Source: an uncultured archaeon
GTDB taxonomy: Archaea > Iainarchaeota > Iainarchaeia > Iainarchaeales > 1-14-0-10-31-34
Assembly: GCA_964608675.1 (NCBI GenBank)
Contig: CAZSOZ010000002.1
Location: 1-64,000, forward strand
Length of the DNA: 64,000 nucleotides
Direction: 5' to 3'
A model generated the notes under the pieces. That model made no database searches. It saw only the letters and a list, made by a program, of their open reading frames with translations, and had not been told where the DNA came from. The number at the start of each line of letters is the position of its first letter. The stretch's first letter is position 1. Shown here piece by piece: positions 2,528 through 61,297 of this stretch. The position numbers were made by a program, and so were the translations under genes.

Positions 2528-2628
2528 GGGCTCGTAGATCAGCTGGTAGATCGCCGTCTTCGCAAAAAATTTTTTTTTGTTTTTTTTGAATCAGGCGGAG
2601 GCCGCGGGTTCGAATCCCGCCGAGTCCA
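2528..2628 (+). tRNA. tRNA-Ala(CGC) with 28-nt canonical 37/38 intron (2565-2592)
   Basis: Acceptor GGGCTCG/CGAGTCC-A (G3:U70), anticodon stem CCGTC/GGCGG, GGTTCGAATCC T-arm; BHB with TTCG pairing TGAA and bulges CAA and TCA. Confidence 0.92.
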
Positions 2629-13940: not shown

Positions 13941-14144
13941 GGGCCTGTAGCCTAGTGGATAAGGCATCAGCCTTCTAAACTTTTTTCGCAAAAAAGTTTA
14001 ATCAAAAAAGCAATCTTTTCTACGAAAAGATTGTGCATGATTATCTTTTGATTAGGTGCAGTGCGAGTTTATCTCGCACGTTTTGTTGCACCTTTTGGAA
14101 AAGGCGCAAGCTGAGGATCGGGGGTTCGAATCCTCCCAGGCCCG
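13941..14144 (+). tRNA. tRNA-Arg(TCT) with 131-nt intron at 37/38 (13978-14108)
   Basis: 5' exon GGGCCTG...TCAGC-CT-TCT-A; 3' exon A-GCTGA-GGATC-GGGGGTTCGAATCCTCC-CAGGCCC-G. Confidence 0.88.
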
Positions 14145-36754: not shown

Positions 36755-38240
36755 AGGAGGTGATCCGTCCGCAGGTTCCCCTACGGACACCTTGTTACAA
36801 CTTAGCCCGCTTTGCAGAAACTAGAATAACTTTAAGCAAGAACTTAAAGTTCATCCAGACCCCACTTAGCTGGCTTGATGGGCGGTGTGTGCAAGGCGCA
36901 GGGACTTATTCACCGGAAGATAATGACTTCCGATTACTGGGGATTCCAACTTCATGAGGCCGAGTTACAGACCTCAATCCGAACTGAGGTTAAGTTTAAG
37001 AGATTGCCTTGCCCTTTCGGGTTTGGAGCCCATTGTCTTAACCATTGTATGCCGCGTGTTGCCCAGGAGATTCGGGCCATACTGATCTACCGTTGCCCAC
37101 TCCTTCCTCGAAGTTACCTCCGCGGTCTTTATAGAGTGCTCCCGCTAAAAACGAAATAGCAACTATAAATGTGGGTCTCGCCCGTTGCCTGAGTTGACAG
37201 GACGCTTCATAGTACGAGCTGACGATGACCATACAACACCTCTCAGCGCGTCAGGAAAGCCCTTCAGACTGTCCATCATTCTGCTGTCACCCCTGGTGAA
37301 TTATCTGGCGTTGTATCCAATTGAACCGCAGCATCCACCCCTTGTAGTGCGCCCCCGCCAATTCCATTAAGTTTCAGCCTTGCGACCGTACTTCCCAGGC
37401 GGCAGACTTAACGGCTTCCCTTCGGCACCCCTACAGCCTGTAGCTGCTAGGACACCTAGTCTGCATCGTTTACGGCTGGGACTAACCGGGTATCTAATCC
37501 GGGTCGATCCCCCAGCTTTCGTTTCTCACCGTCAGGCCCGTTCTAGTCAAACGCCTTCGCTACTGGTGGTCCTCCTAAGATCATAGCATTTCACCGCTAC
37601 CTCAGGAATTCCTTTGACTTCTCCCGGCCTCGAGTCTAAGAGTATTCTTGGCACGCCTACAGGTTAAGCCTGCAGATTTCACCAAGGACTTTTTAGACCG
37701 GCTACAAACGCTTTAGGCCCAATATTAGTGGACACAACTTATGGAGTACGTATTACCGCGGCGGCTGGCACGTATCTTACCCTCCATTTATTCGCATAAC
37801 GTTTTAAATTATGCAAAAGCAAGCAAAGCTTGCACTTGAAATCCCCCTATCACGCTTTCGCGCATTGTAGAGAATTCGCAACTGCTGCACCCCGTAGGGC
37901 TAGGGACCTTATCTCAGTTCCCTTCTCCGGGCTCCCTCTCTCAAGGCCCGTATGGATCTTGGGCTTGGTGGGCAGTTACCCCGCCAACAACCTAATCCAC
38001 CGCAGTCCCGTCTTCAAGCGAATTGCATGCATGAATGCAATCCCTTTAGGCAATTAAATCTTCCAATATTAATTGCTTATAGAGCATTAGTCCCAGTTTC
38101 CCGGGGTTTACTCTTCTTAAAGGTAGGTTGACTACGTGTTACTGAGCCGTCCGCCACAGTCCATCATAGCATGAACTGTAAGACTTGCATGTTTGAGTCG
38201 GATTTCAATAGCAGTGTCCGCCAGCAGGATCAGCTGGTAT
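36755..38240 (-). rRNA. rrs: 16S rRNA, divergent archaeal (DPANN-like)
   Basis: 5' ATACCAGCTGATCCTGCTGG, GTGCCAGCCGCCGCGGTAA, 3' GGATCACCTCCT; flanking stem 36669-36687/38291-38311. Confidence 0.98.
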
Positions 38241-57366: not shown

Positions 57367-58680
57367 TCAGTTCTTGATTTTCTTTTCTATTTCTTTTTCT
57401 ATTTCTCCTTCATTTATTTCTTCCAAATCATATTTTACTCTTATTATTTTTTTGTTTGTTTTAATTATTTTTGATAAATCAATTGGGGTTCCGCTTAAAA
57501 CTAAATCACATTCAGCTTTGTTGATTGTTTCCTCTAAATCTTTGATTTGTTTTTTTCCGTAACCCATTGCAGGCAGAACTTTGCTTAAATGAAGGTATTT
57601 CTGGAAAGTTTTTTGGATTGATTCCACTGCAAAGGGTTTTGGGTCAACAACATCTGCTCCCTGCTTTTCTGCCATAATTGTTGCGGCTCCAGTGTTCATT
57701 CCTCCGTGGGTAACAGTTGGGCCGTCTTCTACTATCAGAACTTTTTTTCCTTTTAATTCTGTTTCTTCTTCTAATAAAAGTTTTGAATTGCATTCAATTA
57801 TTTTTGCTGAAGGATTCCATTGCTTGATATTTTCTTTTAATTTTTCTACTTTTTCTTTTTTTGCTGTGTTCATTTTGTTGATTATTATTGCATCTGCCAT
57901 CAAAAAGTTTGCCATTCCTGGATGATAACTTAGTTCGTGTCCTGTTCTGAATGGGTCTGCTACAACAAATAATAAATTTGTTTCATAAAATGAAAATTCG
58001 TTGTTTCCTCCGTCCCATAAAAGTATGTCTGCTTCTTTTTCTGCTTCTTTTAGTATTTCTTTGTAATCGACTCCTGCAAACAATATGTTTCCTTTTTCTA
58101 TGTGGGGTTCAAATTCTTCTCTTTCTTCTATTGTGCAGTTGTTTTTTTCCAGGTCTTCATATTTTTCAAAGCGCATTACTTTTTGTTCAACTAAATTTCC
58201 GTAAGGCATTGGTTCTCGAATTACAGCAAATTTTTTTCCTGTTTTTTTAAGTATTTCTGCAATATATCTTGTGGTTTGGCTTTTTCCGCATCCTGTTCTC
58301 ACTGCATTAACTGCAATAACTGGTTTACTTGATTTTAATTGCATTGCTTTTGGTCCAAGCAGTTGAAAGGAAGCTCCTGCACTTAAAACAAGTGAAGCTC
58401 TTTTCATTACGTAATCAAAGGAATTATCTGAATAAGAAAAAAAAACTAAATCAATGTTTTTTTCTTTAATTAATTCAGTTAATTTTTCTTCTGATTCAAT
58501 TGGAATGCCTTTTGGATAAAGTTTTCCTGCTAATTCTTTTGGATAAATTCTGCTGTCTATTCCAGGAATTTGTTCTGCAGTAAAACACACTACTTCAAAT
58601 TCTTGGTTGTTTTGAAAATATGAATTAAAGTCATGGAAATCCCTGCCTGCGGCCCCCATAATAATTACTCTTTTTTTCAT
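57367..58680 (-). CDS. COG2403 P-loop protein (cyclic 2,3-DPG synthetase homologue; candidate arginine synthetase ArcE)
   Basis: IMGAAGRDFHDFN, AVRTGCGKSQT, TIEEREE, WDGGNN, EDGPTVTHGGM, LPAMGY. Confidence 0.82.
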   Translation of the reverse strand: MKKRVIIMGAAGRDFHDFNSYFQNNQEFEVVCFTAEQIPGIDSRIYPKELAGKLYPKGIPIESEEKLTELIKEKNIDLVFFSYSDNSFDYVMKRASLVLSAGASFQLLGPKAMQLKSSKPVIAVNAVRTGCGKSQTTRYIAEILKKTGKKFAVIREPMPYGNLVEQKVMRFEKYEDLEKNNCTIEEREEFEPHIEKGNILFAGVDYKEILKEAEKEADILLWDGGNNEFSFYETNLLFVVADPFRTGHELSYHPGMANFLMADAIIINKMNTAKKEKVEKLKENIKQWNPSAKIIECNSKLLLEEETELKGKKVLIVEDGPTVTHGGMNTGAATIMAEKQGADVVDPKPFAVESIQKTFQKYLHLSKVLPAMGYGKKQIKDLEETINKAECDLVLSGTPIDLSKIIKTNKKIIRVKYDLEEINEGEIEKEIEKKIKN

Positions 58681-58744: not shown

Positions 58745-59356
58745 TTATTTTTCCCAAAGCTCTTTTTTGTCTTTTCCCTGTTTATGCATTTCAATTTCAT
58801 TCATTAATTTTTCTCTTTCATCTGTTTTTTTTTGGTCTGCAAAAAAAGGTTTGATTAAAAAGAAAACAAAAGCCAGAACAACATCCAAAAATATTATGTA
58901 TAAAAAAAAAGCGTGGTTGAGAATAACAAAATAGCCCAGCAGAAAGATTCTCAGTAAAATAAGAATTGAAGCATAATTGTGCCCCTGGTATTTTCTTTTA
59001 TAAACTGCAATTCCTAAAATCAAGGAAATTAATCCGAATAATCCAAGCAAAAGAAATTCAAACAAATGCTCTGCTTTTATTATTTCTAGTTCTGGAAACA
59101 AAAGAAAAAAATAAAATATTTCTACAATCCAGGTAAGAAACAAAAGCGTTCCTGCAGTTTTTACTGCCAGAGGATTTATTTCTTCTCCTTTGTTTTCTTT
59201 TGATTCTTTTTTTTTGTATTCTCTGTTCACTTCTTCCAAAAGCCTTAAAGGATAACCAGACAATTCAAGAAATTTAATGATTTCTTTTTCATCCATTCCT
59301 TGTTTTTTTTTCTGTTTTATTCTTTTTTTGATTTCTCTGTAATCTGTTTCATGCAT
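58745..59356 (-). CDS. Hypothetical membrane protein
   Basis: Basic N-terminal domain plus four TMs. Confidence 0.65.
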   Translation of the reverse strand: MHETDYREIKKRIKQKKKQGMDEKEIIKFLELSGYPLRLLEEVNREYKKKESKENKGEEINPLAVKTAGTLLFLTWIVEIFYFFLLFPELEIIKAEHLFEFLLLGLFGLISLILGIAVYKRKYQGHNYASILILLRIFLLGYFVILNHAFFLYIIFLDVVLAFVFFLIKPFFADQKKTDEREKLMNEIEMHKQGKDKKELWEK

Positions 59357-59362
59357 TCTTTT

Positions 59363-60271
59363 TTACCGCCTTTTTGTCACAAAAACTATTTCGTTTGGAA
59401 AATCTATTTTTGCATTCAGATAGAGGTCATTCTCTTTAATAAATTTTTTTATGATTGAGGTTTCTCTGAATGAAATTTTTTCTTTTTTTGTCATGGATTC
59501 TTTTGAACAACTTAAAATAATCCATTTAGCAGGAATCAATTCAATTAAATTTTCAGTAGAACCTTTTTTTTCTCTTTCCATTACAGGAATTAATTTAAGC
59601 AGAAAAGCTGAATCAAATTTTTTTCCGTTGTTTAAATCAAGCAATTCATTTCGTGTTTCAAAATCTGTTTCCATTAAATTCAAAAAAAAGCCTTTTCCGT
59701 TTACTTCAGAGTATTTTTTTATTAAAGAAAAATATTCATTCATCTGCTTTATGAACTCTTTTTTGTATTCTGTTCCTGCAAAAAAAATTTTTTTTAATCC
59801 AAGAAATGGAACAGAAAAATAATTGAATCCAGCAGATACATCAAGAATTGATTCAGGTTTTCCTGTTATCCTAAAAATTTTCCTGTAAAATTCAGGATAA
59901 AAATCAATTCTTTCTCTTGAAGAAACATGCATTTCCAGCATTTGTTTGTGCAAGCCAATTGTTTTTTCAAGTTTTTTTTCTTTTTTAATTTTTTCTTTTA
60001 ATTCATTAAATTTTTCTTTTATTTTTTCTTCTGGTTCGTGTTTGTACTGCCTTAATTCATAATAAATTTTCTTTTTTGTTTTTTTCATTACTTTTTTGTA
60101 TTCACTCCATTTCTCGAAATTTTTTTTCTCTGAAAACTCTAAAATATTTTCCATGAATTTTTTGTTTTTGAAGGCTTCCTCTAAAAAGACTTCTTTTGCT
60201 TTTTTTTCAGAAACCTTGTACCTTTTAACTATTTTTTTAGTTGAATTCTCAACAATTTTTTCGGGAATCAT
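59363..60271 (-). CDS. ArmA/Rmt/Sgm (FmrO)-family 16S rRNA m7G1405 methyltransferase-like protein
   Basis: MHVSSRER...FY..IF...PESILDVSAGFN; D.AFLLKLIPVMEREKKG; C-terminal PNEIVFV. Confidence 0.78.
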   Translation of the reverse strand: MIPEKIVENSTKKIVKRYKVSEKKAKEVFLEEAFKNKKFMENILEFSEKKNFEKWSEYKKVMKKTKKKIYYELRQYKHEPEEKIKEKFNELKEKIKKEKKLEKTIGLHKQMLEMHVSSRERIDFYPEFYRKIFRITGKPESILDVSAGFNYFSVPFLGLKKIFFAGTEYKKEFIKQMNEYFSLIKKYSEVNGKGFFLNLMETDFETRNELLDLNNGKKFDSAFLLKLIPVMEREKKGSTENLIELIPAKWIILSCSKESMTKKEKISFRETSIIKKFIKENDLYLNAKIDFPNEIVFVTKRR

Positions 60272-61297
60272 TTAAAACCATTTTCCTAAAGAGCTCTGCT
60301 TTCCTTTTTCATCAAGTTTTTTTTGCAGTTTATCCAGAGTGTTTGCAACTCTTTCTTTGCTGAACTGGTGTTTTTCATGAAGCAATTCAATTATTTTTTC
60401 TTTGTCTGCATTCATGAATTTTATTTCAAAGTCTTCTTCGTATTCAGGTTTCAAAAAAATCTTTTCAATTTCTTTCCAGTCAAAATCAATTTTGTGTTCT
60501 GTTTTTTTAAGTATTTCTTCAAAGGAATCATTTTCTTTAACTAATTTTAATGCAGTTTTTGGGCCTATTTTAGGGAATTTTTCATTGAAGTCTGTTCCCA
60601 CTAAAATTCCAATCCAGACAAGTTTTTTTCTGGTTATCTCATTTTTTTCTAATACTTTGTTTAATTCAATTCTTTCAGGAAAACTTTCAATATAAATGTT
60701 TCTGCCTGGAACTTTTCTTTTTCCTCCGACAGTAATGTTTCTCAGCAAAACAGGGCTTCCAAACAATAATGCATCAAAATCCTGGCTTATACATCCGTAA
60801 ACTTCTTTTTTTTCTGCCATAACAGAAATTTGTGCTTCTCCTTCTCCTTTTGCCTGAATTACAGGCAATCCCATTAATTCAACTAATTTTTTTGCTTCTT
60901 CAATCATTTCATCTGTTAATCTTGAACTCTGCTGGGCAAATTTTTTTGCTTCTTTTAAGTCTCCTTTTTTTTGTGCTTCCTTCATTTTTTTTTCTGCTGA
61001 AGTCCTTATTTCTCGTCTTTTTTTTCTTGTTTTTTCTTTTAAAGGATGAGGTTTTCCGTCAAAAACAAAAACCGGTTTAATGTCCCTGCTTAACAGGTTA
61101 GTAGTGCGGTAAAATAATCCGGTTAAATGAGAAGTAACTTTTCCCGCTGAATCCATTAAAGGGCTTCCGTCCTGCCCCCTGATATTTGAAAGAAACTGAT
61201 ACAAAATATTAAATGAATCAATTCCAACTATTTTATTAGAAAGAGCATCTAATTCAATTTGCTCTTTTTTAACTAAATCCCCTAAATGAGTTCCCAT
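60272..61297 (-). CDS. fen: Flap endonuclease-1
   Basis: YQFLSNIRGQDG, TSHLTGLFYR, FVFDG, EGEAQ, SQDFD, LVGTDFN, PIP box QSSLGKWF. Confidence 0.97.
   Translation of the reverse strand: MGTHLGDLVKKEQIELDALSNKIVGIDSFNILYQFLSNIRGQDGSPLMDSAGKVTSHLTGLFYRTTNLLSRDIKPVFVFDGKPHPLKEKTRKKRREIRTSAEKKMKEAQKKGDLKEAKKFAQQSSRLTDEMIEEAKKLVELMGLPVIQAKGEGEAQISVMAEKKEVYGCISQDFDALLFGSPVLLRNITVGGKRKVPGRNIYIESFPERIELNKVLEKNEITRKKLVWIGILVGTDFNEKFPKIGPKTALKLVKENDSFEEILKKTEHKIDFDWKEIEKIFLKPEYEEDFEIKFMNADKEKIIELLHEKHQFSKERVANTLDKLQKKLDEKGKQSSLGKWF

Follow-up and report, generated by a model that had tools for sequence, protein, structure and literature searches.

No cause of pan-aminoglycoside resistance is more serious than the methyltransferases that modify N7 of G1405 in 16S ribosomal RNA (rRNA), known as the Arm/Rmt or FmrO family, whose mode of base recognition is defined by one cryo-electron microscopy structure of one bacterial enzyme. 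Archaeal members have been in print since 2010: NEQ545 of Nanoarchaeum equitans was introduced as "the first archaeal ortholog", with a function called "unclear" (Husain et al., 2010, PMC2896518), and a family gene was noted in both nanoarchaea (Podar et al., 2013, PMC3655853). The present work concerns such a gene, encoding a protein of 302 residues (59363..60271, minus strand), in a window of 64,000 nucleotides (nt) that forms the start of contig CAZSOZ010000002.1 from an uncultured archaeon of the order Iainarchaeales. The functional class of guanine1405-N7-methyltransferases presupposes G1405 in the organism's own 16S rRNA, where A1405 paired with U1496 was found. The enzyme must therefore do something other than the textbook G1405 reaction, and the product name "guanine(1405)-N(7)-methyltransferase" cannot hold in its literal sense for the genus to which the window belongs.

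Membership of the family was observed in both sequence and fold. The open reading frame (ORF) scored 50.1 bits against the Pfam model FmrO (PF07091; gathering cutoff 27, E 3.4e-13), and all six orthologues of the genus exceeded the same cutoff. A single-sequence search of the PDB with phmmer matched Sgm (E 4.1e-11) and RmtC (E 4.4e-9), and a clade profile built from the protein and 23 relatives matched 8 distinct PDB sequences, none of which falls outside Sgm, RmtC, ArmA, RmtB and RmtF (best E 6.5e-35, for Sgm, and 6.9e-32), over a span running from about residue 60 to the C-terminus. The AlphaFold2 model computed from the family alignment (mean predicted local distance difference test 92.8, predicted template modelling score 0.87) comprises a helical N-terminal domain and a class I Rossmann methyltransferase domain and is closest to the solved Arm/Rmt structures. 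Indeed, Foldseek placed only Sgm, RmtC, ArmA, RmtB or RmtF entries at ranks 1-16 of its PDB matches before dropping to generic methyltransferases, and the top 10 entries of VIA-align were all Arm/Rmt (Z 17.5-24.1, next entry 14.4). In the latter comparison the N2 and catalytic domains superposed on Arm/Rmt structures at a root-mean-square deviation (rmsd) of 2.1-3.2 Å, while the N1 subdomain superposed poorly on the bacterial structures, only 3lcv spanning model residues 9-300, at 7.3 Å rmsd. In evolutionary terms, the encoded protein truly belongs to the Arm/Rmt (FmrO) 16S rRNA methyltransferase family, as a preliminary description of this DNA had proposed from motifs, and the danger foreseen there, that the protein might belong to another methyltransferase family, did not materialise.

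A HMMER database search returned 933 representative clusters at E <= 0.001, of which 384 reached E <= 1e-10 and 14 reached E <= 1e-30, with full-length relatives at 57, 43, 42 and 36% identity and lower, some of which have been labelled automatically as "16S rRNA (guanine(1405)-N(7))-methyltransferase". Thirteen metagenomic sequences, at 68-77% identity, all contain the Pfam domain (ten full length, with 303-307 residues, and three of 230-241 residues). Source names in the database include a Bathyarchaeota archaeon (P0024) and a Nanoarchaeota archaeon (the P0028 cluster). The phylogeny for which the preliminary description had called alongside the PF07091 search was computed with FastTree (LG+gamma) from 301 profile columns of 196 sequences, namely 39 from the loci studied and 157 database proteins limited to 230-400 residues, and was midpoint-rooted, branch support values not being inspected. 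It places the genus in a small clade with the database proteins P0019-P0025 and the protein of genome G215, from a second DPANN phylum, the bulk of whose sequences lie in another large clade.

The sole 16S rRNA gene found in the genome (36755..38240, minus strand; 1408.6 bits against the Rfam archaeal small-subunit model) reads A at Escherichia coli position 1405 (36879, minus strand) and U at its partner, position 1496 (36799, minus strand), within the helix 44 (h44) strands GCACACACCGCCCAUCAAGCC and ...CUAAGUUGUAACAAGG. In the structural account of RmtC, G1405 forms a Watson-Crick pair with C1496; U1406, C1407 and A1408 come next, and U1495 lies opposite (PMC10288597). Our E. coli numbering was taken from this pair and its neighbours. 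The replacement of G1405-C1496 by A1405-U1496 is a compensated swap. For position 1405, the numbering also relied on the 1392-1406 primer site. The preliminary description had reported A1405, and had conceded that a second 16S copy with G1405, or a mis-assembled 16S, would overturn its proposal. Neither was encountered: the genome (1.21 Mb in 53 contigs, 94.4% complete) holds one small-subunit match and one methyltransferase copy, located 21 kb apart on the same contig, although another 16S gene might lie in the missing 6%, and Logan contigs from two runs of one study cover position 36879 without a differing letter, although one of these runs (X1) may be the source sample. Furthermore, this A is shared by 80 genomes of the order.

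A1405 is indeed a trait of the whole order and not of a single genome. Our comparisons covered 215 + 301 + 24 genomes, the first figure being the phylum of the window and the second the genomes sampled from that of G215. A 19-mer degenerate for A/G at 1405 found its match in 26 of 41 close relatives, every one of them reading A, and a 17-mer, GYACACACCGCCCNTCA, matched 82 of the 215 phylum genomes, 80 of which read A. Within the order of the window, A1405 was read in 80 of the 81 genomes with a 17-mer match, including four of the five other genomes of the genus (the fifth, G001, having no 16S match). The two exceptions are G214, from another order of the same class, which has the canonical G1405 with C1496, and G020, within the order, a 16S fragment of which (G020:C7:23515-23531) reads GTACACACCGCCCGTCA (GTACAC...G) where its congener G174 reads GCACAC...A. 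This fragment appears to be of bacterial type, and may be assembly contamination. The 17-mer tally replaced an earlier one made with the 13-mer ACACCGCCCNTCA, which was too loose: when its variable position is A, T or C, this pattern recurs outside rRNA, and 18 of its 20 non-G matches in the second phylum were not 16S (L047, L049-L052, L054-L066). Short decoding-site patterns should not alone be used to call residue 1405.

Near the footprint of the enzyme, the 16S rRNA of the carriers showed no change in line with the presence of the gene. Five carriers were aligned with three sister genera that lack the gene, four further members of the order and G214. The h44 strands around 1405 and 1496 were identical in the five carriers and the non-carrier genus g2, and helix 45 (h45) was identical to that of g2 in four of the five carriers, with a single base different in G003. 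None of the ten genus-diagnostic columns of this alignment lies near 1405 or 1496, or at the decoding site; counted by offsets from primer sites, they correspond approximately to E. coli positions 276, 455, 645, 823, 1118, 1153, 1163, 1201, 1285 and 1451. No rRNA change, then, accompanies the gene. As a separate observation, the 16S genes of G003 (L081) and G008 (L085) contain inserts of about 100 and 190 nt, respectively, at the same point of the helix 24 (h24) loop, inside GGATTAGAT^ACCC, presumably near E. coli position 790. The window 16S and seven others lack such an insert, and the G004 copy ends at that point. These inserts could represent rRNA introns or expansion segments; in bacteria, the Rmt N-terminal domain contacts this site.

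The gene itself has a far narrower distribution than A1405. With the window protein as query, intact orthologues at 68-75% identity were found in all five other genomes of the genus and in none of 35 genomes of other genera. PF07091 was detected in 7 of the 215 phylum genomes, namely the six of the genus and G213, and the clade profile singled out these seven again as strong matches (E 1e-114 to 1e-119 in the genus, 4e-41 in G213), its 18 further matches in the phylum scoring at most 21 bits on generic Rossmann motifs only. Within the order, this amounts to 6 of 196 genomes, all from one genus in which every genome is a carrier (6/6), against none of the 190 others. The G213 assembly yielded no 16S match to either the 13-mer or the 17-mer.

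As the preliminary description had stated, the gene lies directly downstream of fen, a flap endonuclease gene with XPG_N and XPG_I domains (60272..61297, minus strand), the ORF starting right after the fen stop codon. The gene for a predicted membrane protein of 203 residues (58745..59356, minus strand) lies 6 nt further downstream, followed by a GTPase-like gene of 437 residues (57367..58680, minus strand). In three sister genera fen adjoins the GTPase gene, with gaps of 6-84 nt, so that fen and this gene form the upstream and downstream borders of an insertion holding the methyltransferase and the membrane protein. The latter diverges quickly, being 33-61% identical within the genus; it has no Pfam family, no similarity to the gene beside the G215 copy, and atlas scores of at most 0.86. 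In three species of the genus (G001, G003, G005) a further 650-890 nt separate fen from the methyltransferase and hold small two-gene cassettes that differ by species (L003:2523-3240, L004:616-1500, L007:2460-2971): a PIN-like and an RHH-like gene in G001 and G003, and a ParE-like gene with an 80-residue partner in G005, all Pfam hits being below threshold. In G004, yet another gene occupies this interval. The spot adjacent to fen is a variable insertion spot that collects toxin-antitoxin-like cassettes, and not a housekeeping operon, so that position is uninformative on function or on the origin of the resistance family. The preliminary description had, by contrast, seen a housekeeping context bearing on that origin, a suggestion which a genus-only gene, in an insertion absent from sister genera, does not sustain. 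A compositionally foreign island was also considered and rejected, since the GC content around the gene (0.29-0.30) falls within that of the non-rRNA bins of the window (0.27-0.33). Since A1405 is found in 80 of 81 genomes of the order, and the gene in a single genus at an insertion absent from sister genera, A1405 predates the gene, which shows that the gene entered a lineage already without G1405.

Once acquired, the gene was kept. Among the six orthologues of the genus, the ratio of nonsynonymous to synonymous substitution (dN/dS, Nei-Gojobori) was 0.14-0.23 in 15 of 15 pairs, at dS values of 0.86-1.49 that are near saturation. As judged from these substitution patterns, the gene has been held under purifying selection since the genus diversified.

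A second case was found in the phylum of G215, itself a carrier with G1405-C1496, which was reached with the single protein P0028 as query. The clade profile matched 183 of the 301 sampled genomes of this phylum (182 of 300 without the unpublished G458). A G-type 13-mer was present in 117 of them, matches that were not individually verified, and 69 of these carry the gene while 48 gave no match (68 versus 48 of 116 without G458). Genuine 16S sequences with A1405 were found in only two of the sampled genomes, G271 and G282; both have U1496, both are carriers, and their proteins lie in separate parts of the tree, away from the genus of the window. In the family of G282, A1405 with U1496 occurs in this genome and in G532, and G1405 in G530, G531 and G533; the gene was found in all of these but G531. 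The copies in G282 and G532 are intact and mutually closest (62% identity versus 45-49% for other pairs), with pN 0.24, pS 0.69 and dN/dS of about 0.16. They represent a second, independent A1405-U1496 lineage keeping the gene under constraint, in which the gene came first and A1405 afterwards. The tabulation of gene presence against residue 1405 across DPANN that the preliminary description had envisaged, made here for two phyla, thus yields carriers with A1405 (the window genus, G271, G282 and G532), with G1405 as the usual background in the second phylum.

The residues of the protein were compared with those of RmtC, equivalences being counted by hand along the profile alignment to chain 8ghu_A. 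The three motifs named in the preliminary description are all in place. The family signature HVSSRER (residues 115-121; 59909..59929, minus strand) includes S117, the aligned counterpart of Ser107, which contacts the carboxyl group of S-adenosylmethionine (SAM) in RmtC (PMC10288597). Motif I, LDVSAGFNY (residues 143-151; 59819..59845, minus strand), retains D144 and G148 and has Y151 in place of the family proline, and motif II, FFAGTE (residues 163-168; 59768..59785, minus strand), ends in E168, aligned with Asp160, which contacts the SAM ribose (PMC10288597). In LLKLIPVMER (residues 224-233; 59573..59602, minus strand), K226 and R233 align with Lys204, which contacts N7 of the target base, and with Arg211, which stabilises the distorted h44 (PMC10288597). 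The segment KKTKKKIYYELRQY (residues 63-76; 60044..60085, minus strand) provides K63, K66, Y70 and Y76 as counterparts, respectively, of Lys47 and Arg50, which dock on helix 27 (h27)/h44 and h45, of His54, which stabilises the rRNA rearrangement, and of Tyr60, which stacks between SAM and the base (PMC10288597). The remaining two elements are placed less directly. SCSKESMTKKEKI (residues 254-266; 59474..59512, minus strand) would correspond to the RmtC loop 237-246, K262 and I266 taking by spacing the places of Arg241 and Met245 in the loop that distorts h44 (PMC10288597), with a register ambiguous by one residue between HMMER alignments. The KRYK loop (60215..60226, minus strand), placed from the AlphaFold2 model and outside any HMMER alignment of equivalence, would by position be the counterpart of Lys20 and Tyr21, which dock on h45/h24 (PMC10288597); its Y18 is near-invariant in the family alignment.

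According to these alignments, every RmtC residue to which the structural account ascribes a critical part in binding SAM, contacting N7, stacking on the base or distorting h44 would have an identical or conservative counterpart. Within the docking and h44-distorting set, K63, K66 and R233 would be of the same kind, His54 would be replaced by Tyr70, Arg241 by Lys and Met245 by Ile, and Lys20/Tyr21 would be matched by position only. In line with this, the columns of H115, S117, E120, R121, D144, G148, K226 and E294 show 97-100% conservation over 175 background sequences (99% for K226), and these eight residues are kept in 19 of 19 genus-level sequences, which also retain the SAM-contacting E168. 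Departures in the genus are P151Y, at a 94%-conserved proline after motif I, and, in about half of the sequences, Y164F, at a 96%-conserved tyrosine. It should be noted that the contacts to G1405 described in the RmtC account are the stacking of Tyr60, Lys204 (to N7) and Lys236, none of which is described there as guanine-specific (PMC10288597).

We tentatively favour, at somewhat below an even chance, a reading in which the enzyme still docks on the h44 top and transfers a methyl group to the purine at 1405, an adenine in this case. The helical N-terminal domain would dock on the mature 30S surface of h24, h27, h44 and h45, the C-terminal loop and Arg233 would pry open the top of h44, and nucleotide 1405 would be flipped between Tyr76 and bound SAM, Lys226 positioning N7 for methyl transfer. 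Because the flipped base is here an adenine, the product would be N7-methyladenosine (m7A), or would carry the methyl on another ring nitrogen of A1405. An N7 methyl would leave no reverse-transcription signature. The family would then recognise "the purine at 1405", guanine not being needed, and the purpose may be the same as in the G1405 relatives, a bulky charged methyl group occupying the major-groove site of 4,6-disubstituted aminoglycosides and similar natural products. Methylation of adenine is the simplest mechanism consistent with the insertion, the retention of the gene and the residues kept. A broader proposal, possible but doubtful, is that the Arm/Rmt fold is indifferent to which purine stands at 1405 and makes m7A in the window genus and in G282/G532, the base swap and the enzyme together protecting the decoding site in two layers from natural compounds akin to aminoglycosides in microbial mats.

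Several observations weigh against adenine methylation. Adenine N7 is a poorer nucleophile than guanine N7, and among the literature matches listed (titles and abstracts) there was no genuine case of an enzyme making m7A in RNA. The window protein scored 86.2 bits against NCBIfam NF000466, the equivalog model for Rmt 16S rRNA (guanine(1405)-N(7))-methyltransferases, for a cutoff of 250, and only 17-37 bits against all the Rmt subfamily models (cutoffs 500-550). No substitution was found to be shared by the three A1405 lineages (the window genus, G271 and G282), so that nothing marks an adaptation to adenine. As for G271, nine of the ten genomes of its family with a match read G, so that its A is recent and adds little. 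Over the family core, defined as the 11 columns at least 90% conserved, 134 of the 175 background sequences show no departure, while the genus shows one or two, G271 one (D220K) and G282 one (E120G). The nearest outgroup, the database protein P0019 (303 residues, 57% identical), has four core departures, including Glu at the motif I glycine and Asn at a 90%-conserved Asp, in a full-length frame, and the G213 copy (L072, G213:C7) has three, with RYDGRRM at the H-x-S-x-x-E-R site and the frame intact. The pattern of these two proteins would also fit a relaxed catalytic constraint. Lastly, no archaeal family member is known to have been assayed, and the function of NEQ545 was called unclear (PMC2896518).

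These points have to be set against what else could account for a conserved gene facing A1405. The preliminary description had left the choice between a changed target or chemistry, a non-catalytic factor and a relic. The last of these has become unlikely, while the other two stay: an orphaned gene without function, heading to loss, could be imagined from the absence of the canonical substrate base in the organism's own 16S and from the catalytically damaged appearance of P0019, but the six orthologues are all intact, at the divergence and low dN/dS reported above, the near-invariant family residues persist, the thirteen metagenomic sequences all keep the Pfam domain, and the genome is small and streamlined, which together make a relic very improbable. 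The full-length frame of P0019 despite its motif I Glu, and that of G213 kept without H-x-S-x-x-E-R, would fit a factor for late 30S assembly, quality control or protection which clamps h44 at its top, methyl transfer being absent or incidental. For such a role Bud23/WBSCR22 and Dim1/DIMT1L offer a precedent, their presence and not their activity being needed (PMC4472018), and all the A1405 lineages show the one or two core departures just mentioned. Yet S117, D144, G148, E168 and K226, kept in 19 of 19 genus-level sequences, are not required for binding alone, and an essential assembly factor would not be limited to one genus of an order; we consider a binding-only role quite unlikely.

A somewhat better case, though still rather an unlikely one in our estimation, can be made for an active enzyme whose target has moved, either to another base reached from the same dock, such as a conserved G at the top of h44 or in the h45 loop, or to another RNA; the whole archaeal clade may, in that event, never have targeted 1405. 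The gene persists in two independent A1405 lineages without shared adaptive change, the clade occurs in 183 of 301 second-phylum genomes regardless of context, the N1 subdomain superposes poorly on the bacterial enzymes (only 3lcv over residues 9-300, 7.3 Å), and no archaeal member is known to have a mapped target (PMC2896518). Against this, the counterparts of the RmtC residues that dock on h24/h27/h44/h45 and flip 1405 are conserved, 69 of the 117 second-phylum genomes with a G-type 13-mer carry the gene, making G1405 its usual background, and near the footprint the 16S of the genus shows no G peculiar to it. One could also look outside the cell. Such small-genome archaea depend on hosts, and with a genome of 1.2 Mb and a gene that arrived together with a membrane protein lacking any known family, the enzyme might act on the G1405 ribosomes of a host archaeon sharing its cytoplasm with the symbiont. 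The N-terminus, MIPEKIVENSTKK..., however, has by eye no export signal (no predictor was run), no secretion genes are linked, and the membrane protein has neither relatives nor a counterpart beside the G215 copy, so that action on foreign ribosomes is hardly to be expected. Methylation of A1405 itself remains the reading that we retain, with the reserve already expressed.

The family, its archaeal branch and its fold were already known. Within the literature searched, two elements appear to be new: the replacement of the G1405-C1496 pair across a whole order, and an enzyme kept under selection without its textbook substrate base in two independent lineages. Among the literature matches listed, there was no ribosomal report describing a G1405A/C1496U replacement or 1405-1496 variants, nothing on 1405 by way of Micrarchaeota or primer mismatch, and no report of m7A1405 as an RNA modification. 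A near-universal base pair of the decoding site has been replaced across a whole DPANN order, and the natural G1405A/C1496U substitution experiment has been run at least twice, the enzyme being kept each time. If adenine methylation is true, both the chemistry of the family and the catalogue of rRNA modifications widen; if the target has moved, the case shows how a resistance-type enzyme retargets; and if the protein only binds, it is a new late 30S factor.

Elsewhere in the window, two tRNA matches, at 13941-14144 (plus strand, 204 nt) and 2528-2628 (plus strand, 101 nt), are long with respect to the 71-position model, which suggests tRNA genes with long introns.

Compared with described systems, the protein is closest to Sgm of Micromonospora zionensis (PDB 3LCU, 3LCV), a self-resistance enzyme of an aminoglycoside producer, which was the best match in both sequence and structure (VIA Z 24.1, 2.1 Å over 201 residues). 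It differs from Sgm in an identity of only 17-19%, in a locus without aminoglycoside biosynthesis context and in the substrate base. With RmtC (PDB 6PQB, 6CN0, 8GHU) and the acquired Rmt/ArmA m7G1405 enzymes it shares the two-domain fold (VIA Z 17.5-22.1), the superposition of the N2 and catalytic domains at 2.1-3.2 Å rmsd and, by alignment, the counterparts of Ser107, Asp160, Lys204, Tyr60, Arg211, Lys47 and Arg50. By contrast, it is about 17-21% identical to them, reaches 86 bits against the 250 of the NCBIfam Rmt equivalog, and has Tyr for His54, Lys/Ile for Arg241/Met245 and Tyr for the motif I Pro; moreover, its gene is chromosomal, in an organism whose own 16S has A at 1405. Bud23/WBSCR22 and Dim1/DIMT1L, which are 18S base methyltransferases, could serve as a model of a small-subunit role limited to binding (PMC4472018), but belong to unrelated subfamilies, act on other nucleotides and are universal in their lineages, unlike the genus-restricted gene of the window. 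NEQ545, compared here by description only, and the archaeal clade of the Arm family are likewise archaeal, chromosomal and of the same family (PMC2896518; PMC3655853). In the phylum of G215, however, the gene is common and G1405 is usual, whereas the window gene is found in one genus, in an insertion, and faces A1405.

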